Shown piece by piece: positions 4,601-58,071 of a DNA stretch of 64,000 bases. A model generated the notes under the pieces. That model saw only the letters and a program-made list of their open reading frames with translations, was not told the DNA's origin and searched no databases. This stretch comes from Magallana gigas (Eukaryota): the NCBI RefSeq assembly GCF_963853765.1, contig NC_088853.1:39060001-39124000 (forward strand). The letters run 5' to 3'. Position numbers and translations under genes: made by a program. Numbering within the stretch: position 1 is the first letter of the stretch; each line of letters starts with the position of its first letter.

Positions 4601-5609
4601 CTACCACTCCTCCAGGATCAAGATGTGGACCCGGCGGGTTCTAGCATACCCGCGAGGATAGTCTACTGCTATGTACCCTCCTGTCGCAGTCCCAGGTGGC
4701 GGGCGGGGGAACTCCGGAGAGAACTCTACTCCCCTCGCTCTTCCTGCAACCCAGGGGTCCCAGGGCTCCAAGGCGCCCACCAGCTCATCCTCGGACGAGG
4801 TCGGGTCTGGGCCATAGTCCTCCGGCTCCTCCTCGGGCGGGGTCGCTGCTTCATCTACTTCGGTCTCCTCCCGTCTGAAGCTCTCGAGGGGTAGTGGCTT
4901 CATCGTCCTCGGACTCCTCCTGTCTGAAGCTCTCTGGAGGGGTAGTGGCGTCATCGTCCTCGGACTCCTCCAGGCAGATGCTCCCCAGAACTGGGGGATC
5001 AGGGGCATCCCAATCCTCATGGCAAGGACCCGGGGGCGGGGGTGGCAAGAGCCTAAACATCCCGTACTGCGACAATGGGTGCCCGCTGACTGTCTCGTTG
5101 CTCCACAGCTCCCGGTAGGCCCTCCTTAGGTCCGGGCCCAACCGGGAAACTAGATGTGCCTGTACCCTCCAATGTAACAGGAGAGCGGGATGTAGCCGAC
5201 CGAACAGGGCAAATCGGTGAGGGGGGTCCTCCCCCACAAACCGGCACAGTGCCTCCATGGCCCGATTCAAATCGGTGGGAACACCGGCGGCGGGCTTCTG
5301 GAACACTTCGCCTGTTGGGACGTCCCTCGCCAGGTCCTCTGGAGTGGCTCCTTCCCCCAGCAGGTGGTGAGCCATCCACATAAGCACGCGGTACCGGAGG
5401 CTGGCCCCCGCCTCAGGGGGCACAGACCTCCGGAACACTGGATGTAGGTGGGCCACTGTCACATGAGTTCTCATGGTGCGGGTCCGCACCAGGCACCCCA
5501 GGAACGGGCAAGTCGAACTTGGCCCTCTCGAACCTCTCCTCCTCGCGGCCCCCGATGGTGGGGGGGGGGGGGCTGCGGGGCCTCTTCTTCATCGTAATCA
5601 TCGTCATCT
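4601..5609 (-). CDS. Element 1 3' accessory ORF (env position): acidic/proline N-terminus, C-X4-C-X9-H-X4-H zinc-finger-like motif, helical domain, acidic 17-aa repeats; broken by two frameshifts
   Basis: Frame of ORF 4851-5489 is open from 5588 and reads PPPPPSGAARRRGSRGPSSTCPFLGCLVRTRTMRTHVTVAHL. The second 51-bp repeat unit lacks 2 nt, which shifts reading into ORF 4601-5020 (ESFRREETEVDEAATPPEEEPED...). No signal peptide or transmembrane segment is visible. Confidence 0.7.
4830..4970 (-). repeat. 51-bp coding tandem repeat (about 2.7 copies) encoding EESEDDDATTPPESFRQ-like units
   Basis: Units at 4920-4970 and 4871-4919 (49 bp, 2-nt deletion), plus a diverged third unit. Confidence 0.85.
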
Positions 5610-7432
5610 CTGTAAAATAAAAAGACCCTATTAATAATAATAGATATTCCCCCCATACACGTCGGACACACGAACTTGTCCATAGTGGTGGCGTCCTCCG
5701 GCGAGACACCCACACACAAGCCGTGGTACCAGCAGTCGCACTGGTCACACTGGACCATTAGTTTTCCGTCATCAGGACGATGACAGAGGCAATAAAGCTC
5801 GGTATCTGTGGATGTTTCTGGTGACTTTTCTGTGGTATCAGAGGATGACTGGCTGGGCCTCGGGGGTCGGTCTCCTCCTCGATAGGGTTCCTCAGGAGTC
5901 TTACCCAGCTTCCGAGGACGTCCTCTGCGGCGAGCGGGTTGAGGCCGACAGTCATCACCCTTAACTGGGCCCTCGAGTGCTCTTTTTCCCCGAGAGGTCG
6001 AACGTTGCGCCTCGGAATCTTCATCAGATCTTACATCACATGGTGAACCACTCACGAACTTCTCCCGATATCGGGCCAGCCACAAGGGAATATCCCTGTC
6101 GTTACACTTCTTAAGGCGGTCGTGGTTTGCCACCATCACAGCTGTCTTAGTCTTCACACGGTAAAGGTAAGGTGACAGCCTCTTGAGGATGATTCCTGGG
6201 CCCTTCCAGGATGGGCTCAACTTCCGGCACTTGCCCTTAACAGTCGCCGTATCTAGCAGGTATACCAAGTCACCCTCCTCAAAGGGGCGGGTGGCTGCCT
6301 TAATGTCAAAATCCCTCTTCATCCGCTCTTCCGAGGTGTTCAAGCGTCTACGGGTGGTCTCATGCGCCGACTGTATCCTCTCCTCTAGATCTGTCACATA
6401 AGTACAAACATTCACCGGATCCTCTTGAAGGGGAGGCCTGTACATTAAGCTGGCTGGTGTGTTAACTTCCCTGCCCAACATCAGTTTATTGGCGGTGAAA
6501 CCAGAGTTACGGTTCACTGCAGAGCGCAGAGCCCCGGCTATCTGTGCAAGATGCTCATCCCAACAATCTTGGGCCTTGTCAATGTAGCATCTGACAGCAT
6601 CCATAAGAGTCCGATTATAACGTTCAACCTGTCCGTTAGCCGACGAGCGATAAGGGGTGGTACGAGCCTTGTGGATCTCCAAGAGTTCACACACCGCCGT
6701 GAACAGCTTGCTCTCAAAATTACGCCCTTGGTCTGTGAAGATCTGGAATGGGCACCCAAACCTAACGAAGAACTCATTTACCGCGGCTGTAGCTGTAACC
6801 TCGGCCGTCTGTGAAGGGAGGGGAATGCATTCCACCCATTTTGTGAACTGGTCTACCATGACCAAGACATACTCATTTCCCCTCGGAGTCCGTGGAAGTG
6901 GTCCTAAGAAGTCCAGGTGCACCCTCTCCATGGGTGCCCCAGCATGGTACTTAATCATCTCCGCCCTGGCGTGGCGCTGGGGACGTTTGTTTCTACTACA
7001 AGGGCAACAAGTACTGACAAAGTTCTCAGCCTCTCTCATCATTCTGTACCAAAAGAAGTGCTCCCTCAGCCTGGCTTTAGTTCGTTCGATTCCCTGGTGT
7101 CCAGCTGCCGGCACCTCGTGGCAAAGGCGCAGTACCTCTCGTCTCAGGTCACGGGGCACAATCAAAACTCTTTTCCTCTCTCCCCCCTCCTCTATCTCTT
7201 TCCAGAGGACTTTGTCACTATCCAGATATAACATATTCCTGTTGATGTAGTAGTGTTTCACAGCCGGGCTGGTCAGAAACAATTCGCCCTCGTCTGGTCC
7301 CAGTTCTCCCTCCAACCAATCCAAGATCAAGCCTAACTCTGGGTCATTAGAGTGGCTAAGACTCATCTCCTTAAGGGTGAGGCCTACAAGTGACGTCGGG
7401 CCTTCGAGGTCCGCCGGAGAGACTCCCATCAC
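5471..7432 (-). CDS. Element 1 pol, part 2: integrase (HHCC, DDE core) with C-terminal AT-hook and PHD finger
   Basis: HEVPAAGH...CCPC; HLDFLGP, FTDQGRNFES, NGQVERYNR; RRRGRPRK; LYCLCHRPDDGKLMVQCDQCDCWYHGLCVGVSPEDATTMDKFVCPTC. This frame is open from 7576, so the shift from ORF 7429-11424 lies between ~7430 and ~7575. Confidence 0.93.
   Translation of the reverse strand: MMGVSPADLEGPTSLVGLTLKEMSLSHSNDPELGLILDWLEGELGPDEGELFLTSPAVKHYYINRNMLYLDSDKVLWKEIEEGGERKRVLIVPRDLRREVLRLCHEVPAAGHQGIERTKARLREHFFWYRMMREAENFVSTCCPCSRNKRPQRHARAEMIKYHAGAPMERVHLDFLGPLPRTPRGNEYVLVMVDQFTKWVECIPLPSQTAEVTATAAVNEFFVRFGCPFQIFTDQGRNFESKLFTAVCELLEIHKARTTPYRSSANGQVERYNRTLMDAVRCYIDKAQDCWDEHLAQIAGALRSAVNRNSGFTANKLMLGREVNTPASLMYRPPLQEDPVNVCTYVTDLEERIQSAHETTRRRLNTSEERMKRDFDIKAATRPFEEGDLVYLLDTATVKGKCRKLSPSWKGPGIILKRLSPYLYRVKTKTAVMVANHDRLKKCNDRDIPLWLARYREKFVSGSPCDVRSDEDSEAQRSTSRGKRALEGPVKGDDCRPQPARRRGRPRKLGKTPEEPYRGGDRPPRPSQSSSDTTEKSPETSTDTELYCLCHRPDDGKLMVQCDQCDCWYHGLCVGVSPEDATTMDKFVCPTCMGGISIIINRVFLFYRDDDDYDEEEAPQPPPPHHRGPRGGEVREGQVRLARSWGAWCGPAP
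5610..5640 (-). promoter_or_regulatory. Predicted 3' splice acceptor of element 1
   Basis: Minus strand ...ctattattattaatagggtctttttattttacag|AGATGAC: an AT-rich island with branch-like sequence, pyrimidine tract and CAG, inside an otherwise GC-rich element. Confidence 0.75.
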
Positions 7433-49327: not shown

Positions 49328-50371
49328 CTGTACAAAACGTTATCGATTCAGTGAAAAACAAGTTTATATGATTCTTTTTGACAATATCAACTAGCACATT
49401 GCTAAATATCAACTGCACTACAGGCGCAACATTCTACACATTCTCTCACGTATCAACTAAAATAGCTAATTGTTTAACGCACACTTACATTGAATACATA
49501 TGCAAGTTTCATATATTTGTCGTTTAAAATAACAACACCACCATCATTTATTATAATATCAAATTCAATGGCGGCGGCTAAACTCTGAGAATTCCTGAGA
49601 GAAAAAAAGATACGTATTATTAACCCATTTCTACATATAAACAAAGTTATGGTACCGTTTTTTTGAAGATTTCAACTGGTATTTTTAACAACATTAGTTG
49701 TTATACCAATGTGAAGTAAAAGTACTGGACAAAGATTTAATATCAAGAGTAATATAAAATGTTAAGCAGCTATTGTATATGATTGTCGTTAGAAATAATT
49801 GTCAGATAGCGATACGATCGTGCTAACTAATTGGAATTCAGTCAGAGTGCATTGCAGAAGGGCGGCCTGAACCCTCTCTTGAAAACTAGAAAGTTTAATC
49901 CAAACAGTAAAGAACCTGAAAAGGCACCTTACACCTTCTTGTTTAACAAAATATCACTTGAACCCCAATAAAAAACCTTAAGATACATCAGTGAAGATTA
50001 TATTATTGATAACCGTGGTGGGTAGATAACATGGAACATTTCTCAAGTTAATTTAAAAATTTTAATCTCTTTACTATCTGACCCTGAAAACACTTCATAT
50101 GATTTAGAAGAGCTATACATACAAAGATTTCTTTATCGTGCTACTTCCTCCTTTAACACACTACCTTATATTGGAAATAATTGGTTTGTTTTAATAAACA
50201 TCAGGATATTTGTGCTATAGAGATCATTTTCAAGAATAACATATACTTAACCGTCGCTCATAATTCGGGAAGAAAAACAATGTTATTAACATAAGGTAAA
50301 ACTTAAATCTGACCATTCAAGTGTCATTCTAAAACACGAAAAGAAGTATACCGTGATTGTTAGAATCATAT

Positions 50372-50931
50372 TGTAACGTGTTTTACCTAATCAAAATACC
50401 GGGTTCTTTTTAAGGGATATAAATATATTAATTTTACTTCTACTCTTCCTGACTACAATGATTAAACTTGATTTACAATTGATTGGAGGCGAATTTAAAC
50501 TACTTAGTATTGTTTAACTGGGATACTTATCATCGCGTGCCTTGGTAAAGGGTTCTTAATATTACAGGAAGTCAGGCGCCTCAGTCATATAGACTTACTA
50601 CCTCCCGACAACCAATTAAGATTCCAATTCCAATTACCGCTGAGGAGTATTCCTTCCCCTAGTCTGCCTACTTACAACCTCACAAATTAATTCTATCAGG
50701 TTTCTATTACCTTCCAGGTCTTGCTGGTTCTTCTGAGAGCTGTGGGTTTCAGACCTACTCTGCCTTATCTGCTAGATGAGTCTGCTTATATACCCTTGGG
50801 AGAGTTTACTTCCGAGGGGGGACCAGGTCATTCCATTTCAATGGGTGTACTCTGTACGCGTACGGGTGTGCTTTATTACTTAAACTTCATGGGTGTGTTT
50901 CTCTGCTTGTCACTACCCCTATTCCGTTTCA
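50372..50931 (-). repeat. 3' LTR of element 2
   Basis: Direct repeat of 56958-57517. Confidence 0.95.
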
Positions 50932-50945
50932 CTACCCACGCCTCT
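50932..50945 (-). other. Polypurine tract of element 2
   Basis: Minus strand AGAGGCGTGGGTAG abutting the 3' LTR. Confidence 0.7.
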
Positions 50946-51199: not shown

Positions 51200-51877
51200 T
51201 CAGTCATTCCAGATATCTTCCTCGAAACGCTCCACTGTCTCACCATCTTTCTGAAATTTTCTGGTGACTCTTATTATTTTCTGGTGACTCTTTCCTGCCT
51301 TTAGATTTGTATCAGTCTGTGTTTCAGCGTCAGCTTTCTTGCTCTTCTTAGAACAGCATGAGCAGTGTTGGTCATCCAAGGGCGCCTTCTGCACCACCAA
51401 AGCACTGTTGCTAGGTTCCTCTCTCTCTCTCTCTTCATTAGTAGGAACGTCTATGGTCACCGTTTCTGATGTCTCCGTGTTTCTTCTTTTCACCCCTGGT
51501 AAAACTGGAGACGTCTTCTTCCTGTACGTTCTACTGGCTTCTCTGTCCTTCTCCTCCTCAAACAAGAGTTCTCCTGGATCCTCCTGCCAATCCTCTTCAT
51601 CTTCCACGCGTCTTGGTGGAGATTTCTCAGGTTCAGTGGACTCCAGTGGGGTAGTACAATGGTCCTGACCAGGGTGCAATCGTTGCATATGTTTCACCAA
51701 CACAATCTTCCTACCAAAGGCATGGTCGCAAAAATAACATTCAAATCTTCTCTTCTGAATATCTGCCATTCCACATTTTAACAGGTGTTCACTCCACTTG
51801 TCTTTAGTTGGCAGTTGAACCAGACAAATGGAACATAGGAATCCAGGTTTTCGTTGGGTAACTTTAGTCTTCGGCAT
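51200..51877 (-). CDS. Element 2 3' accessory ORF (env position): 225-aa protein with two zinc fingers
   Basis: Intact ATG-to-stop ORF starting 33 nt after the pol stop; CSIC-X12-H-X3-C and CYFC-X12-H-X4-H fingers, acidic patch EDEEDWQEDP, basic patch RKK...KRR, and AETQTD; no TM or signal peptide visible. Confidence 0.85.
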   Translation of the reverse strand: MPKTKVTQRKPGFLCSICLVQLPTKDKWSEHLLKCGMADIQKRRFECYFCDHAFGRKIVLVKHMQRLHPGQDHCTTPLESTEPEKSPPRRVEDEEDWQEDPGELLFEEEKDREASRTYRKKTSPVLPGVKRRNTETSETVTIDVPTNEEREREEPSNSALVVQKAPLDDQHCSCCSKKSKKADAETQTDTNLKAGKSHQKIIRVTRKFQKDGETVERFEEDIWND

Positions 51878-51878
51878 T

Positions 51879-51909
51879 CTGTCCTACAAACTGAAATAAC
51901 ATAATGACA
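51879..51909 (-). promoter_or_regulatory. Predicted 3' splice acceptor(s) of element 2
   Basis: Directly after the pol TAA: tgtcattatgttatttCAG|tttgTAG|gaCAG|aATG, with AGs ending at 51891, 51884 and 51879. Confidence 0.7.
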
Positions 51910-54546
51910 TTAAACCTTGTAATCGAACTCATAGTCGGAATGCCAAGCTGGTCTTTTTCTTTGTCTACGACCAGCATATGCTAGCTCTATCTCATTCAAT
52001 TCTGAATTACCTAACAGTACCACCTGAGACTCATCGTCAGAGATGACATCATTACCCTTATCATGGTTTTCTAAATCCTTAGCATCTATAACCTGATCAT
52101 GATTCTCTAAACTTTCGCTATCGCCTTCATCTCTAAGGACCTGAGTCCCGTAAGGTCTTAACCTATCAACATGTACACCAAGTGTCTTGGTATCAGTTTC
52201 TTTTCTGATTTTGAAAGTAACATCAGAGTGCTGTTTTACAATGATGTAAGGACCATACCAGAAACTCATAAGTTTAGGTGATTTCCCAACAGCTCTCTGT
52301 GGAAAGTATACTAACACCTTGTCACCCTCTTCAAACTTCTTTTTCACCACATTTTGATCATGGTATCTCTTTTGGCGCAACATAGATTGTTCTGTTATTT
52401 TGCGCGTGTTTGCATGCGCCTCTTCCAAAGTTTTCCTAAGTTCCCATACCCAGTCATGTACATTAGTGGGTTTTAGTCTGTTTGGAAGCTCATACATGAT
52501 ATCAATTGGGGTAGCAGTCTCTCTTCCCATCATCAACATATTCGGAGTGTAACCCGTGCTTTCATGCTGAGAGGATCGGTAAGCCATTAGAACATATGGT
52601 AATTTCTTATCCCAGTCTTCCTGGTAGTCAGAGACATAAGCGCTTAACATGGTAGCTAAGGTTTTGTTAAATCTCTCAAACATGCCGTCCGATTTCGGGT
52701 GGAACGCCGTCGTGCGGGTCTTTTTGATACCGAGTAGCTCACACATGTCTTTGAACAACCGACTCTCGTACTGCCTGCCTTGGTCACTGTGTACGATTTC
52801 AGGTACACCATATTTACAGAAAAACTGTTCCACCAGAACTTTCGCCACGGTTTGGGACTCAATATTTTTCAAAGGATACGCCTCTGTCCATTTGGTAAAA
52901 TAGTCAGATACAACGATTATATATTTGTTGCCAGATTCAGTCTCTGGTAAAGGTCCCATTATGTCACTGGCCACACGTTCTAAAGGATAGCCTGTTTGGT
53001 CAATTTGCATGTGTGACTTTCCAGAAGAACGAACTTTTCTTTTCCGGCATTGTGGACATCCGGTTACATAAATTCGGACATCTGCCTGTAAACCTGGCCA
53101 ATAAAACCTTTCTCGTACTCTAGCAAGAGTCTTTCTAACACCTAGACGTCCCGATGTTTTTGCATCATGACACTCTCTGAGTATTTCTTTCCTCTCCGAC
53201 ATTGGCACCAGCACCTGGTAAATGGTTTTTCGATCACCTTCCCATCTTCTACAGAGTAGATTGTCTCTTACTTCCAGGAATTTGTACTGCGACCAAAGAG
53301 ATTTGATTACGTTACTTTCATGTTTAATTTGGATGTATTCTGGGCGATCATTTAGCTCTAACCATTCTCTGACTTTCTTCAAATCAGAATCACCCTCTTG
53401 CAGACATTGCACTGTAGAACTACTATCTGGAGCAGTGTCAGGTGTTACACTTTGTACAACCTTCTCTCCATATCCACACTGGCGACACGGATATCTACTC
53501 AAACTGTCCGCATTTCCATGTTTCGCACCAGGTCTATGAGTGATTTCCAAGTCATAGGTACTGAGTAATTCGATCCACCTGGCTACTTGTCCCTGAGGAT
53601 CTTTGAAACTCATTAACCACTTTAAGGCGCTATGATCAGTGCGCACAATGACTTTGTGACCATACAGGTAGTGTCGAAAATGTTTGCATGCAAAGACAAG
53701 AGCCATCAATTCCTTTCTGGTGACGCAGTATTTTCTTTCACTCTTAGACAGTGTTCTACTTGCGTATGATATCACCTTGGTCGTACCATCTATATCCTGG
53801 GACAACACTGCACCAAGTCCCACTTGACTTGCGTCTGTGTCAAGTATAAAGGGCACTGAAAAGTTTGGGTGTGCCAAAACTGGGGCAGTTGTCAAACACT
53901 TTTTAAGATTATCAAAGGCACTCTGACAATCAGACGTCCATTTAAATTCTCTTCCTTTTTCCGTTAACCGAAATAACGGTTTTGCCAGGCTAGAGAATCC
54001 AGCTATAAATCTCCGGTAATAGCTGCATACACCCACGAAGGATCGCACCTCACTGACCTCAATCGGTATTGGCCATTGTTCCACAACAGCTACTTTGGCC
54101 GGATCTGTTTGTACTCCGTCGCCAGATACCTTATACCCCAGAAACAGAACTTCCTTCTTGAACAAAGTGCATTTTGCAGCTTTGAGCTTTAGTCCTGCCA
54201 ATTGTAACTTGGTCAATACTTGTTCTAAGTTTTGAAGCGTTTCATCAAACGTTTTACCAAAGATAATGATATCATCAATATATACCAAACATACATTGAA
54301 ATTAAGTCCAGCCAACACTACTTCCATTAGTCTTTCAAACGTAGCCGGACTGTTACAAAGTCCAAATGGCATCACGGTAAATTGAAAAAGGCCACTTCTG
54401 GTCACAAATGCAGTCTTTGGTTTATCGGTCTCGTTCATTTCTACCTGCCAGTAGCCCGAGTGAAGATCTAGAGTGCAAAACCAAGACGCTCCTTCCAGTC
54501 GATCTAGGGAGTCATCAATACGCGGTAAAGGGTAGGCGTCCTTCAC
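51910..54546 (-). CDS. Element 2 pol: RT (N-terminally truncated), RNase H, integrase
   Basis: KDAYPLPRID, LDLHSGYWQ, MPFGLCNSPATF, YIDD; LDTDAS, TDHSAL, NADSLSR; SDIMGP, HSDQGRQYES, DGMFERFN; second His of the HHCC motif appears replaced (SGRLG). Confidence 0.95.
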   Translation of the reverse strand: MKDAYPLPRIDDSLDRLEGASWFCTLDLHSGYWQVEMNETDKPKTAFVTRSGLFQFTVMPFGLCNSPATFERLMEVVLAGLNFNVCLVYIDDIIIFGKTFDETLQNLEQVLTKLQLAGLKLKAAKCTLFKKEVLFLGYKVSGDGVQTDPAKVAVVEQWPIPIEVSEVRSFVGVCSYYRRFIAGFSSLAKPLFRLTEKGREFKWTSDCQSAFDNLKKCLTTAPVLAHPNFSVPFILDTDASQVGLGAVLSQDIDGTTKVISYASRTLSKSERKYCVTRKELMALVFACKHFRHYLYGHKVIVRTDHSALKWLMSFKDPQGQVARWIELLSTYDLEITHRPGAKHGNADSLSRYPCRQCGYGEKVVQSVTPDTAPDSSSTVQCLQEGDSDLKKVREWLELNDRPEYIQIKHESNVIKSLWSQYKFLEVRDNLLCRRWEGDRKTIYQVLVPMSERKEILRECHDAKTSGRLGVRKTLARVRERFYWPGLQADVRIYVTGCPQCRKRKVRSSGKSHMQIDQTGYPLERVASDIMGPLPETESGNKYIIVVSDYFTKWTEAYPLKNIESQTVAKVLVEQFFCKYGVPEIVHSDQGRQYESRLFKDMCELLGIKKTRTTAFHPKSDGMFERFNKTLATMLSAYVSDYQEDWDKKLPYVLMAYRSSQHESTGYTPNMLMMGRETATPIDIMYELPNRLKPTNVHDWVWELRKTLEEAHANTRKITEQSMLRQKRYHDQNVVKKKFEEGDKVLVYFPQRAVGKSPKLMSFWYGPYIIVKQHSDVTFKIRKETDTKTLGVHVDRLRPYGTQVLRDEGDSESLENHDQVIDAKDLENHDKGNDVISDDESQVVLLGNSELNEIELAYAGRRQRKRPAWHSDYEFDYKV

Positions 54547-54566
54547 CGTTTAGTTGTTTAAGGTAG

Positions 54567-56594
54567 TCAACCGATAGTCATCAGTCTAACTGGTATTTTC
54601 TCAGATGAATTGACTACAGATCGAGCTACCAATGCTCTTCCGCTGTCCTGAAACTTGGCACAAGGTTCAATTAACAACGGTATCTGTGGGAATTTCGGTA
54701 GGTCTAACACTTGACCCGGGCATACCATTTCGCTTTTAGGAGGAATGGATATGGTTTCACATAGGCTCACCCGAAAGCAGCCAATATTTCCTTGCACATC
54801 TAATTCATGTTCTATCCCACGTACATACATCTTGGTCTTGCATACGTCAACTAGGCATTCATTCGTTTGTAAGAAATCTAATCCAATAATGCCATCTGCC
54901 TTTATGTTTGCTATCACTGCCTGAGTCTCAAATTCTTGAGAACCAAGTTTAATGCCAAATACTCCTTTTCCTTGTACCGTAAGCGGCGCACCATCAGCCC
55001 CTACAATTCTCTGTGATATCGGTAAAAGGGAAGTTCTGCTGATTTTGTCTATTTCTGCATACAGTTGATCTGACAAAATAGTCAGAGTGGCTCCCGTATC
55101 TAACAGTAAATTACACTGAGTGCCATTTACCTTTGCCTTGACAAACAACCCAGATTCATGGCTGTCTTGGTCAACTTTCATGGCCGTTGTACTGGAAACT
55201 CTCGAATCATTCCTCTTATTGGAATCTGTATTCCCTTTGACACTGGATGAATCCTTTACCTCTGGTTTTTGCATTCTAGTGCCACCTCTATTGTTTCTCA
55301 GAAAACAATCTTTGATCATGTGGCCTTTCTTTCCACAATGGTGGCATTTAAAAGGAAATCTACCTTCCTTGGCTATATTACCCGTATCTGCAGCAGCAGA
55401 TGATTCTTTTACCGAGACATTAACAATTTTCTTTTCTAAATCTTTAAGAGACGCCTGTATCTCATCTCTTAATTGCCTGAGTTCCTCCCTAACAGTAGGA
55501 TCTTGTGCATCAGGTGTAACATGGTTATTGCTCGTGGTCCTGACATATCCACCATTTTCTCTTCTTTGACGTTCTGCTCTAGAGAATGCCTCAATCTCAA
55601 CTGCACAACGTATTGCTTCATTGAGTGACTTTGGTCGAGATTGCTGAATGCGTAGACGCATATCAAACTCTGTCAAAGCATCTATGAACTGATCTTTGGC
55701 GATCATCTCTGTAACTTCTCTGGGAGCAGTACGATATGCCAGATGCGCTAGACGTCGAATACTTTCACCAAGTTCTGGTAAAGATTCATTTGGTCTTTGG
55801 CGCTTCTCTCTGAGCATTGCCCGGTAGAGTTCAGTTTGATTCGCGGGTGCAAATCTCGATTCCAAAGCTTCGCATAACTCTGCGTAGGTCCTATTCACTC
55901 CTGATCTCATGTTACCGAGGACGGTCTGGGCCTGTCCTCTTAAAGAAGCTGCCAGGTACAAGCTTTTCTGCTGGGAGTTCCATGAATTGATATCGCTACA
56001 GGCCTCAAAATGCGCTTTGTAATCAATCCATGATGCAGTGCCGTCATATGTTGCCGGTTTCATCACTGTTTTACCATAGTCCTGAGACCGTTCATTCGAA
56101 ATATTTTTAGTTGTAGTAATAGTAGGAAACGATCGGTAAACGGATTCCTGCACTGGATTCCAATTATTTGACCACGTAACCGTAGACGAATCTGATGATG
56201 ACACCGCACACCGAGTACTTAGGTAAGGGTTGGGTGTCAAATATGTCTCGGTGAACACTGGTTGGCTTATGGTTCCTAAGCGCGGCAGCCTGTTTTCAGT
56301 ATCTGTAACCTTCGGCAGTGCACGATCCTTCTCAACTTCGTACAATGTGTACCCAGGCTTTGGGTATTCAAAGTGACCAGGTGCATACCCCGTGTTCTTC
56401 GGTGTTTTGAAATTTATTTCAAAACTGTCGCCAGGGTTGCGATTGCTTTTGTAGCCCATGTCTACTCCGGAGTCTGGCATTGGCGAATGTTTGGCAAACT
56501 GTGGAGTTGATCGTAATCTTTCAATTTCTGCTCGGAGCTTTTCCCTTCTGGCATCTATGGCACTGAGGTCGGCTAACAAATCGTCTTCACTCAT
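54567..56594 (-). CDS. Element 2 gag-protease
   Basis: KPATYDGTASWIDYKAHF (capsid-like), CHHCGKKGHMIKDC (CCHC knuckle), LLDTGATLT (protease). Confidence 0.95.
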   Translation of the reverse strand: MSEDDLLADLSAIDARREKLRAEIERLRSTPQFAKHSPMPDSGVDMGYKSNRNPGDSFEINFKTPKNTGYAPGHFEYPKPGYTLYEVEKDRALPKVTDTENRLPRLGTISQPVFTETYLTPNPYLSTRCAVSSSDSSTVTWSNNWNPVQESVYRSFPTITTTKNISNERSQDYGKTVMKPATYDGTASWIDYKAHFEACSDINSWNSQQKSLYLAASLRGQAQTVLGNMRSGVNRTYAELCEALESRFAPANQTELYRAMLREKRQRPNESLPELGESIRRLAHLAYRTAPREVTEMIAKDQFIDALTEFDMRLRIQQSRPKSLNEAIRCAVEIEAFSRAERQRRENGGYVRTTSNNHVTPDAQDPTVREELRQLRDEIQASLKDLEKKIVNVSVKESSAAADTGNIAKEGRFPFKCHHCGKKGHMIKDCFLRNNRGGTRMQKPEVKDSSSVKGNTDSNKRNDSRVSSTTAMKVDQDSHESGLFVKAKVNGTQCNLLLDTGATLTILSDQLYAEIDKISRTSLLPISQRIVGADGAPLTVQGKGVFGIKLGSQEFETQAVIANIKADGIIGLDFLQTNECLVDVCKTKMYVRGIEHELDVQGNIGCFRVSLCETISIPPKSEMVCPGQVLDLPKFPQIPLLIEPCAKFQDSGRALVARSVVNSSEKIPVRLMTIG

Positions 56595-56805
56595 TCTGGT
56601 ATTATATTCTAACTGGGTTACAATTTCCTATAAATGCACTTGGTTAACTTTGCACTCGGTAAACTTTGCACTTGGTAAACTTCACCGAGTAATATTCATT
56701 ACCCGGAGACTAAGCAAACCAATAACAAGCCTAACAATACACGAAGTAACGCTGTACACACGCGGCGCAACCGACCTTTGGATAACTATACACAAGCTCT
56801 AATAT

Positions 56806-56812
56806 ACTTACC
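56806..56812 (-). promoter_or_regulatory. Predicted 5' splice donor in the leader of element 2
   Basis: TTG|GTAAGT (intron start 56811), between the PBS and the gag ATG at 56594. Confidence 0.65.
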
Positions 56813-56944
56813 AAGTCACAAATACTCGGTCCACTATACCCGTCAAAAATTAATTGGTAAAATATTAACCTGGTAAAACAAATCTACATAAAACAACAAA
56901 ACCAAAATAAATCAACAATTTAATCAGTTCCTATCCCTTAACCA

Positions 56945-56954
56945 GCTGCCACCA
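56945..56954 (-). other. Primer binding site of element 2 (tRNA-Leu type)
   Basis: TGGTGGCAGC three nt after the 5' LTR; matches the start of the tRNA-Leu-type PBS TGGTGGCAGCGG. Confidence 0.75.
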
Positions 56955-56957
56955 AAA

Positions 56958-57517
56958 TGTAACGTGTTTTACCTAAACAAAATACCGAGTTCTTTTTAAG
57001 GGATATAAATATATTAGTTTTACTTCTACACTTCCTGAGTACAATGATTAAACTTGATTTACAATTGATTGGAGGCGAATTTAAACTACTTAGTATTGTT
57101 TAACTGGGATACTTATCCCCGCGTGCCTTGGTAAAGGGTTCTTAATATTACAGGAAGTCAGGCGCCTCAGTCATATAGACTTACTACCTCCCGACAACCA
57201 ATTAAGATTCCAATTCCAATTACCGCTGAGGAGTATTCCTTCCCCTAGTCTGCCTACTTACAAACTCACAAATTACTTCTATCAGGTTTCTATTACCTTC
57301 CAGGTCTTGCTGGTTCTTCTGAGAGCTGTGGGTTTCAGACCTACTCTGCCTTATCTGCTAGATGAGTCTGCTTATATACGCTTGGGAGAGTTTACTTCCA
57401 AGGGGGGACCAGGTCATTCCATTTCAATGGGTGTACTCTGTACGTGTACGGGTGTGCTTTATTACTTAAACTTCATGGGTGTGTTTCTCTGCTTGTCACT
57501 ACCCCTATTCCGTTTCA
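56958..57517 (-). repeat. 5' LTR of element 2
   Basis: Direct repeat of 50372-50931, followed by TSD ATAT. Confidence 0.95.
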
Positions 57518-58071
57518 ATATATTTACTAATAGTAATTGTATCTGGTCGACATGATAGTTATGAATATGTGTTGGAAATTGTTTGTGGTAATCTGCATTC
57601 AGGGGGTTAAAGTATTCCTAAGTACAATCTGAAAAAAAAAGTTATCACGAAAACTATCGTTTGATTTCTGTGTTGTCTACCCGCTATGATTCAATAAAAT
57701 GGGGTTTTAGATGAGAGACAATTATGCTTTGTTATAACTTTGCGCGAACTGTTGTCTAATGATTTAGAAAGGACTGAATATTTTCGTTACTACACAAGCT
57801 TTATTTTTGAAAACTCTATACCGTTTATACCGTTACTTGTTTACCTTAGGTAAAGCGTTGATATATTGGTATAACAGGAAGGTTGATAAATTAGTTAATT
57901 GTGATTCAGAACCTTACAGTCAGGTTTGCGGCCTACAGTTTTAGGGTATTGTACCAAAGCTACATTCCGTTTTGTTCGCTATACAAAAAGAGTGATATGA
58001 ACTTTAAAATAATTCTGTCGGACAAGCGTTATAAACACAGAAGTGAATTATTATACTGTTTTACCCTTCTG

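Follow-up and report, generated by a model that had tools for sequence, protein, structure and literature searches.

An accessory gene conserved in a bivalve Ty3/Gypsy retrotransposon clade encodes a candidate histone H3 tail mimic

A retrotransposon of the oyster Magallana gigas carries, behind a damaged pol gene, an open reading frame for a small protein with two zinc fingers (ORF3). The question raised by this locus is what such a protein does for the element and from which RNA it is made. The DNA studied, here called the window, is a stretch of 64,000 nt (GCF_963853765.1, NC_088853.1, 39,060,001 to 39,124,000 of the forward strand), and all coordinates are given within it. The element (Element 2) lies on the minus strand of the window and is, by its sequence, an LTR retrotransposon of the Ty3/Gypsy type. 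It is bounded by a TG...CA LTR pair and a short target-site duplication, contains both a tRNA primer binding site and a purine tract, and shows the Ty3-like order PR-RT-RNase H-IN in Pfam searches; the best solved relative of its pol is Ty3-G Gag-Pol (E 5.6e-91). Its features, in the direction of transcription, are:

57518..57521, minus strand, target-site duplication ATAT, 5' side
56958..57517, minus strand, 5' LTR of 560 nt (TG...CA), differing from the 3' LTR at 12 positions; RNA contigs have loose ends at 57517
57373..57378, minus strand, TATA-like box, inferred promoter
57289..57299, minus strand, predicted family-wide donor AAG/GTAATA, first intron base 57296, 82 nt past the TATA box
56945..56954, minus strand, primer binding site, pairing over 10 nt with the 3' end of tRNA-Leu(AAG)
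56804..56814, minus strand, leader donor TTG/GTAAGTAT, intron starting at 56811, an alternative specific to the family
54567..56594, minus strand, gag-protease frame, 675 aa, with capsid, CCHC knuckle and aspartic protease, stopping at the break
54563..54578, minus strand, gag-pol break, frame lost, about 480 nt absent relative to sister copies
51910..54438, minus strand, remainder of pol with RT, RNase H and integrase (Pfam)
51879..51909, minus strand, T-rich putative acceptor region with three AGs, their last bases being 51891, 51884 and 51879
51200..51877, minus strand, ORF3, accessory gene, 225 aa
51848..51877, minus strand, H3-tail-like N-terminus MPKTKVTQRK, 5 of 9 residues as in H3, in register
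51773..51835, minus strand, zinc finger 1, C2HC
51674..51739, minus strand, zinc finger 2, C2H2
51575..51589, minus strand, W..DP motif within an acidic patch, conserved in 50 of 58 aligned ORF3 sequences
51506..51523, minus strand, basic RK.T.P motif, candidate nuclear signal or phospho-site, conserved in 52 of 58
51311..51331, minus strand, DAETQTD, LC8 (dynein light chain)-type motif
51206..51283, minus strand, predicted C-terminal beta hairpin, residues 199-224, pLDDT about 90
50932..50945, minus strand, purine-rich tract preceding the 3' LTR
50372..50931, minus strand, 3' LTR, 560 nt
50368..50371, minus strand, target-site duplication ATAT, 3' side

A preliminary description of this DNA had remarked that ORF3 is intact in spite of the damage to pol. 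The frame is indeed open throughout (51877-51200), and pol is broken at 54563/54578, where the sequence of the sister copies is lost. The observation is true, but it is a weak argument alone, because the two LTRs are still identical at all but 12 of 560 sites and ORF3 of Element 2 differs from those of three sisters by 0, 5 and 1 synonymous and 8, 9 and 8 non-synonymous changes. The comparison across copies is more informative: 11 disjoint pairs of unbroken copies, pooled, contain 57 synonymous and 73 non-synonymous changes in ORF3 (pN/pS 0.36, p 3e-8), which indicates purifying selection, the value for pol being 0.38 (6 pairs).

ORF3 is an accessory gene that a large Ty3/Gypsy clade of bivalves has conserved. 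Matches to it were found in 72 of 136 candidates in the same genome, and it lies downstream of pol in 18 diverged family representatives, whose integrase cores are 49-76% identical to that of Element 2; the integrase tree was built from elements of this genome. Homologs occur in oysters, the pearl oyster and scallops. A representative-sequence search gave 26,350 matches, mostly finger arrays, and 31 new single-stretch sequences were kept from the best 150. Two loci (L102 and L105) turned out to be unrelated host finger genes and were removed from the set, and three others (L091, L125 and L137) are decayed.

The two fingers described earlier are present, one C2HC (C15-C18-H31-C35) and one C2H2 (C47-C50-H63-H68), although all Pfam matches of ORF3 fall under the cut-off. 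As for the "env position" assigned to the gene, it describes the location after pol only: no env family was found in Pfam, and the model, made up of two fingers, disordered sequence and a beta hairpin, does not resemble an envelope glycoprotein with its signal peptide, fusion and membrane segments. Foldseek gave no match at E 0.001 or better, and the fold matches of ORF3 concern the fingers only (best Z 5.0, rmsd 7.3 over 59 residues), the hairpin being hardly probed. The ESM Atlas yielded only generic finger clusters, with recognition under the mark. Across the U3 regions of 18 LTRs, no 6-mer recurred in excess when two-letter words were left out (for Element 2 they were included). In the Element 2 LTR, the threefold ACACCC is within chance (145 of 1000 shuffles), and no candidate finger site was found.

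The preliminary description recognized the fingers but missed the two most conserved features outside them, an H3-like N-terminus and a TQT motif. With the H3 sequence read from the same genome and the register counted from the start Met, the N-terminus of ORF3 matches H3 residues 1-9 in register. In 58 aligned sequences, which share kinship and are not independent events, identity to H3 is found at T3 in 54, K4 in 57, T6 in 55, R8 in 45 and K9 in 45, and K4 and T6 are both present in all 18 family representatives. Other H3 residues are rarely kept (R2 in 1, A7 in 2 and S10 in 3 of 58) and Q5 is mostly lost too, so many H3 readers could not bind. Identity per sequence ranges from 3 to 8 of 9 residues, most having 4-5; the best matches are L128 (8 of 9) and L100 (7 of 9), both of family J. 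As background, none of 1198 Met-anchored windows from long frames at 40 loci reaches 4 of 9, and among 3842 internal 9-mers of ORF3 three reach 4 and none reaches 5. The motif stays locked to the Met although the first Cys shifts from position 10 to 21. The residue following the Met is small in 57 of 58 sequences, and initiator Met is removed ahead of small residues; the H3 residues would then stand in register at a free N-terminus.

The closest known arrangement is that of the SNAG factors (SNAIL, GFI1 and INSM1), which combine a mimic of the H3 tail at the extreme N-terminus with C2H2 fingers and often have Pro1, found here in 20 of 58 sequences. Unlike them, ORF3 has the T3, K4, T6, R8 and K9 of H3 and not the SNAG sequence: there is no Pfam SNAG match at E up to 1, and in a comparison with the familiar SNAG consensus its residues follow H3. 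Its fingers come directly after the tail, it is encoded by a mobile element, and LSD1 is only a candidate partner. Short H3-like motifs also occur in proteins of genetic parasites, namely NS1 of influenza H3N2 and ORF8 of SARS-CoV-2, described as H3 mimics in PMC13165374. Those are four-residue motifs, internal or C-terminal, whereas ORF3 matches up to 8 of 9 residues in the true N-terminal register and does so clade-wide.

A free N-terminus would depend on how ORF3 is expressed. The perfect donor TTG/GTAAGT reported in the untranslated leader is present; it is the sole GGTAAGT of the element, and over a leader of 363 nt only 0.005 matches of 9 bases to the U1 complement would be expected. Candidate acceptor AGs do occur in the 32 nt that separate the stop of pol from the ORF3 ATG, and the predicted intron of ~4.9 kb would measure 4921 nt from 56811. 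The preliminary description gave the leader part of exon 1 a single mini-ORF; an exon 1 ending at 56812 would contain two upstream ATGs, one at 56889 and the other, with 8 codons, inside the LTR at 57174. Of the 5 sister copies that have a leader, 4 retain this donor, but most other families have no counterpart of it at that position. An acceptor scoring at least 13 lies 0-17 nt from the ORF3 ATG in 17 of 18 families, compared with 61 of 1590 ATGs elsewhere and 15 of 178 ATGs in non-coding parts, a conserved placement right before the start codon as in a spliced gene; the single family lacking it also lacks the LTR donor described next. The predicted family-wide donor is inside the LTR, 60-99 nt past the TATA box in 13 of 17 families (a window picked post hoc, once the sites were known); no window between +100 and +750 has a donor in more than 5 of 17 families. 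In Element 2 this donor (57296) is kept in 8 of 8 sister stretches, has weaker donors nearby at 57269 and 57261, and would give an ATG-free exon 1 of about 50 nt. Donor 56811 is therefore probably not the ancestral one.

Splicing was looked for in 4 of 24 listed RNA runs, chosen with the whole element as bait, which favours full-length RNA. No spliced junction, including one from 56812 to an acceptor, is listed in any of the four, which are only 4-5 reads deep at the acceptor with joints listed from 3 reads up. In X21 all 4 reads at 51890 and all 4 at 51937 are unspliced, long contigs from X1 and X6 run through the acceptor unspliced, and the RNA depth of ORF3 is not clearly higher than that of pol in the four runs. 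A joint between 55054 and 55739 (4 reads) was rejected as a splice junction, having no GT-AG ends. No spliced retrocopy was found among 80 genome stretches. Spliced transcripts were also sought twice among JGI metagenome contigs, with 103 and 67 pattern matches, none of them confirmed. The earlier proposal of a small nuclear regulator made from spliced RNA thus draws on conservation, the acceptor and the LTR donor, but splicing was not seen and the donor named is doubtful. Judging by its signals, a short spliced RNA is the likely message for ORF3.

In layout the element resembles the insect errantiviruses with a spliced env: it has LTRs, a tRNA primer site, gag-PR-RT-RH-IN, a third frame between pol and the 3' LTR, and donor and acceptor signals. 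It differs from them in having as its third frame a gene for a small finger protein that shows nothing env-like, and in carrying the conserved donor inside the LTR, upstream of the primer site.

The second conserved feature is the TQT motif, defined for LC8 as in PMC12057147. An xQT is found in 55 of 58 sequences and a strict TQT in 43, with two or three sites in 29, and the region is predicted to be disordered (low pLDDT around residues 170-195). By motif and disorder ORF3 is a putative LC8 client. A predicted complex with LC8 of the same genome scored 0.58, against 0.06 for the best control, and weakly supports binding: likeness to solved LC8-TQT complexes may explain the score, and in the calibration 5 of 78 solved complexes, and all four mismatches that passed, did so at 0.60 or under. 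The partner has a pLDDT of 46-51 in this model, and at least 67% of the contacts agree between runs. With the LC8 clients ASCIZ/ATMIN and Panoramix ORF3 shares TQT-type motifs, one to three in number, within disordered sequence, and ASCIZ also has zinc fingers; ORF3 has far fewer motifs than ASCIZ, and no sequence relationship to either is apparent beyond the motif.

These features can be joined in one mechanism. We give about an even chance to the reading that ORF3 is an LC8-dimerised, zinc-finger-tethered decoy of the H3K4 tail, made from spliced RNA, which keeps the LTR of the element unsilenced. Were the transcript spliced from the donor some 50 nt past its 5' end to the acceptor before the ATG, the resulting mRNA would have neither the primer site nor upstream ATGs. 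Cleavage of the initiator Met would leave K4 four residues from a free N-terminus, like in H3, LC8 would bind the TQT motif and form an ORF3 dimer, and the two fingers would put it on DNA, probably that of the element itself. The tail could then fill an H3K4 reader or eraser, candidates being LSD1/CoREST or an ADD/PHD reader; a host LSD1 gene was not recovered in SWIRM or amine-oxidase searches. Family J (L098-L100 and L128), the one with the best H3 match, counts against this mechanism: its ORF3 lies in frame behind pol with no acceptor or TATA nearby, and a free N-terminus is not evident there. The direction, protection and not self-repression, is the step with the least support. The viral mimics and the SNAG factors are precedents for such a tail: the SNAG N-terminus of SNAIL imitates the H3 tail in LSD1, with Pro1 required (PMC13316430). 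The SNAG precedent counts against the direction, however, as it recruits a repressor.

The wider proposal, equally balanced in our judgement between right and wrong, is that a bivalve LTR-retrotransposon clade encodes a dedicated mimic of the H3K4 tail against host silencing, spliced for a free N-terminus, dimerised by LC8, aimed by fingers and kept across oysters and scallops. If true, histone mimicry would be a form of transposon counter-defence. In the literature searched, it is known from viruses and host factors only, few regulatory or anti-silencing proteins are known from animal retrotransposons, and no account of ORF3 or of a retrotransposon histone mimic was found, Repbase, Dfam, subscription papers and supplements lying outside this search (the supplements of PMC6238403 may list elements of this group). 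Dozens of natural variants, with 3 to 8 of 9 H3 residues, are at hand for a peptide pull-down that would name the targeted host factor and so identify the bivalve transposon-silencing pathway.

The same mimicry with the opposite sign is an unlikely alternative. Like a SNAG factor, ORF3 would bring LSD1/CoREST or another repressor to its own LTR or to competitors and so limit copies. We know of no SNAG sequence with a lysine at the position of H3 K4, and the tail keeps this residue, the real substrate position, in 57 of 58 sequences; retention of ORF3 in 18 families with young LTRs would also be easier through a gain of activity. The alternative draws on Pro1 and the C2H2 fingers, as in SNAG factors (PMC13316430), on the dimerisation of the transposon-silencing complex PICTS by LC8 via Panoramix motifs (PMC7861614), and on the drop of ASCIZ activity as LC8 occupancy rises (PMC5963919).

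It is similarly improbable that ORF3 is a particle or pre-integration cofactor acting on Gag or integrase, with LC8 serving assembly or transport and the tail and fingers choosing the chromatin for insertion. Fusions of retrotransposons with chromatin readers are known (10.1101/2021.11.30.470311), and in family J and P0296 ORF3 lies in frame behind integrase. In deletion derivatives, which have spread, gag-protease is fused to the last three quarters of ORF3, with the TQT motif and hairpin retained; the fusion is in frame at 4 of 4 independent junctions whose parent is known, for which the chance is 1 in 81. These derivatives have lost the tail, however, and in four of family B the ORF3 part has a pN/pS of 0.15-2.3 (few changes) against 0.12-0.19 for gag, so the in-frame joins may show no more than that early stops are avoided. 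Another point against a cofactor is that in 17 of 18 families ORF3 remains a separate frame preceded by an acceptor of its own. The gag-ORF3 fusions of family A were considered as splice products and rejected; with microhomologies of 6 and 8 nt and no GT-AG ends, they are read as DNA deletions.

Less probable still is a Rev-like exporter of unspliced genomic RNA, the fingers and basic patch binding RNA. Its model is CERV of the C. elegans Gypsy-class element Cer1, described in PMC10309623 as a nuclear accessory regulator from spliced RNA, with a cysteine finger and a basic signal, that is required for genomic RNA export. A donor at the extreme 5' end would pose the same export problem in the Element 2 clade, and the basic RK.T.P motif and the splicing predicted for ORF3 would fit. 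However, the ORF3 alignment has no conserved leucine-rich export signal, and K4 and T6, locked to the N-terminus, would be left unexplained. CERV also differs in size and domains (517 aa, exons common with gag, helix-hairpin, ring and GTPase-like domains in the same source), and ORF3 sits after pol and has the H3-like tail and TQT.

That the H3 likeness arose by convergence on a basic arm at the N-terminus, or is what remains of a finger linker, in an ordinary two-finger transactivator is just as improbable, for although a profile aligns the tail residues to the CTCF inter-finger linker and most sequences have only 4-5 identities, the motif is tied to the Met rather than to the finger, retains both threonines and reaches 8 of 9 in one family, and no background window reaches 5.

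Some ORF3 proteins are annotated as host genes, under the names "RE1-silencing transcription factor-like" and "zinc finger protein 407-like"; they belong to retrotransposons, and their annotation is corrected here.

Element 2, on the minus strand of the window, belongs to the Ty3/Gypsy LTR retrotransposons; it is flanked by an ATAT target-site duplication and carries a primer site that matches tRNA-Leu(AAG). Its Pfam domains run from gag-protease to RT, RNase H and integrase, and Ty3-G Gag-Pol is the best solved relative of its pol. The frame after pol is referred to as ORF3.

57517-56958 and 50931-50372, minus strand: LTRs, 560 nt each, 12 mismatches between them
57296, minus strand: predicted family-wide donor AAG/GTAATA, inside the LTR
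54563/54578, minus strand: break, ~480 nt of the sister copies missing and the frame broken
51877-51200, minus strand: ORF3, 225 aa

ORF3 is a real gene. Searching the genome (564 Mb, 29 contigs) with it gave 72 matches among 136 candidates, a second query gave 98 among 150 scored, and 80 genome stretches around matches were taken for inspection. It sits after pol in 18 families; their integrase cores share 49-76% identity with that of element 2. The gene that the preliminary description had read as intact is conserved beyond the window copy: 11 disjoint pairs of unbroken copies, pooled over 8 families, yielded a pN/pS of 0.36 (57 synonymous and 73 non-synonymous differences, p 3e-8), compared with 0.38 at the end of pol (6 pairs). 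Comparisons from one family to another show saturation at synonymous sites, with the ORF3 proteins still 50-60% identical; differences between the window copy and its sisters are not informative on selection. Two matches were unrelated host finger genes and were set aside, and three more were decayed. Two copies of one family (L039 and L040) lie in tandem, ~6.9 kb apart, with one LTR common to both.

The nearest named relative is an oyster protein that shares its 90% cluster with a relative of 96% identity, and named homologs occur in Crassostrea/Magallana, Saccostrea, Ostrea, Pinctada, Pecten, Argopecten and Mizuhopecten. A retroelement context is seen directly for two, P0296 (after integrase) and P0187 (after a gag-protease-like stretch). 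One family member, P0227, is catalogued with a bacterial MAG (Ca. Thiodiazotropha); its contig, 1869 nt long, is probably host-clam DNA. As a Gypsy accessory gene ORF3 belongs to a new family, and its N-terminus resembles the H3 tail. Searches of the open-access literature turned up no published account of it or of retrotransposon histone mimicry; neither ORF nor zinc appears as a word in the main text of PMC6238403, and retrotransposon and Metaviridae are absent from PMC11738798.

A T-rich tract with an AG 0-17 nt upstream of the ORF3 ATG is found in 17 of the 18 families, although the pol-ORF3 spacers vary from 0 to ~190 nt and differ in sequence among families; as background, this acceptor score is attained at 61 out of 1590 other ATGs, and at 15 out of 178 that lie in non-coding parts (first 11 families). 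The donor had been placed in the leader at 56811, with a ~4.9-kb intron, and these splice-site coordinates proved correct on re-reading. The leader donor matches U1 over 9 bases, where chance predicts 0.005 such sites in the leader of element 2, and it is present in 4 of 5 sister copies having a leader, but most other families have no counterpart there; instead, 13 of 17 have a G/GTR site 60-99 nt downstream of the TATA box, a window set after the sites had been seen. Control windows from +100 to +750 reached a maximum of 5/17 families in any one, and 9/17 have a further scoring site in untranscribed sequence just ahead of the TATA box. In element 2 the donor at 57296 would mean a 5406-nt intron and a first exon without ATG; the leader donor would leave two upstream ATGs in that exon. 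Splicing from the LTR donor would also cut out the primer site, which fits the absence of spliced retrocopies of ORF3-bearing elements among the 80 stretches. In one sister copy, a ~1-kb insertion (L031:6385-7417, oriented) lies between acceptor and ORF3, directly upstream of the ATG.

Four of 24 listed RNA runs were examined. Reads on element 2 (210 in X21, 59 in X24) are spread over gag, pol and ORF3, nearly all in the orientation expected of sense RNA. The anticipated joints from LTR or leader to ORF3 were not listed in the four low-depth runs, where a listing needs three reads and the bait favoured full-length RNA. Reads were unspliced at 51890 (4/4) and 51937 (4/4), and two contigs, 3123 nt long in X1 and 7078 nt long in X6, run through the acceptor uninterrupted. 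This counts against a spliced ORF3 RNA in these samples and neither shows nor excludes a stage-specific one. The ORF3 mRNA is very probably made by splicing. In four X21 reads a stretch of gag is missing, 55054-55739 (684 nt, divisible by three); its ends are not GT-AG, and the reads probably stem from a deleted copy elsewhere. A few antisense-orientation reads cover leader and LTR (56215-57314; X21, X24).

The N-terminus of ORF3, MPKTKVTQRK, has T3, K4, T6, R8 and K9 in register with H3 after the Met (MARTKQTARKS as read from the same genome). In 58 aligned proteins these residues are kept in 54, 57, 55, 45 and 45 rows, respectively, whereas R2 is kept in 1, A7 in 2 and S10 in 3; K4 and T6 occur in all 18 family representatives. 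The spacing of the motif from the Met is constant; the first Cys, by contrast, varies between positions 10 and 21. Met removal requires a small residue next to the Met, and one directly follows it in 57/58 rows. ORF3 may have its own ATG right after the acceptor because a free N-terminus is needed. Family J (L098-L100, L128) is the exception to this pattern: ORF3 continues in frame after pol/integrase (L098:5360, L099:5988, L100:5951, L128:2011, oriented), the four copies share neither an acceptor nor a TATA within 420 nt, and the LTR donor is absent too. It is the one family without the acceptor, its ORF3 has three LC8-like sites, and it holds the best H3 matches (L100, 7/9; L128, 8/9, MARTKNTARK). 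The likeness is probably true mimicry.

The rest of the protein was modelled from the 58 rows (mean pLDDT 71, pTM 0.34) as two fingers linked by a single long helix, a disordered stretch spanning residues ~70-195 and, at 199-224, a hairpin predicted with confidence. Sequence and fold searches matched generic C2H2 fingers solely. Short motifs are conserved (W..DP in 50/58 rows, RK.T.P in 52/58), and xQT occurs in 55/58, 32-57 residues from the C-terminal end, with two or three sites in 29. The LC8 anchor is described as xQT with flanking threonines in PMC12057147. When residues 165-225 were modelled with the LC8 of the same genome as a 2:2 complex, the prediction scored 0.58 (best control 0.06), in a range, 0.60 or under, that holds 5/78 solved complexes and 4/4 passing mismatches; partner pLDDT was 46-51 and contact agreement at least 67%. 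This lends weak support to the complex, and the model may be recalling solved LC8-TQT complexes.

The best reading, to which we give about an even chance, is a putative H3K4 decoy: the protein made from a short spliced mRNA would be nuclear and have its H3-like tail free, LC8 would dimerise it, the fingers would place it on DNA, and the tail would occupy an H3K4 reader or eraser, keeping the LTR active. The preliminary description is confirmed in part as an observation, and its regulator-like interpretation is supported in part and extended. Published work describes viral histone mimics (PMC13165374), chromatin-reader fusions to retrotransposons (10.1101/2021.11.30.470311) and the LC8 clients Panoramix (PMC7861614) and ASCIZ (PMC5963919). 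Element 2 carries ACACCC(A/G)T three times ahead of its TATA box (57434-57482), a number within chance (145/1000 shuffles). In 7/18 families, GTCACGTG or TCACGTG, which we take to be E-box-like, lies shortly upstream of the TATA box (LTRs of L048, L049, L061, L066, L069, L086, L100).

A repressor-recruiting role for this tail, like that of SNAG (an H3-tail mimic, PMC13316430), is unlikely. A particle or integration cofactor is comparably improbable; it would agree with the family-J fusion behind integrase and with deletion derivatives joining gag-protease to ORF3, in frame at 4/4 junctions with a known parent. A CERV-like export factor (comparison: PMC10309623) is very unlikely. So, finally, is a chance basic arm: 0/1198 Met-anchored windows of long frames reach 4/9, and among 3842 internal ORF3 9-mers 3 reach 4 and none 5.

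In the deletion derivatives, which are without RT, RNase H and integrase, the reading frame runs on from gag-protease into the C-terminal part of ORF3.

L035, L036, L038, L043, L044, L014-L025, L029; P0187: non-autonomous deletion derivatives

In several, the two LTRs are 99-100% identical, and in the family-B group purifying selection acts on gag (pN/pS 0.12-0.19). A side observation at 4851-5474 (minus strand) concerns element 1, the second Gypsy element of the window, which has a PHD finger at its integrase end. Its post-pol frame, downstream of a T-rich AG near 5610, belongs to no Pfam family and is unrelated to ORF3; searching the genome gave 48 matches among 63 candidates.
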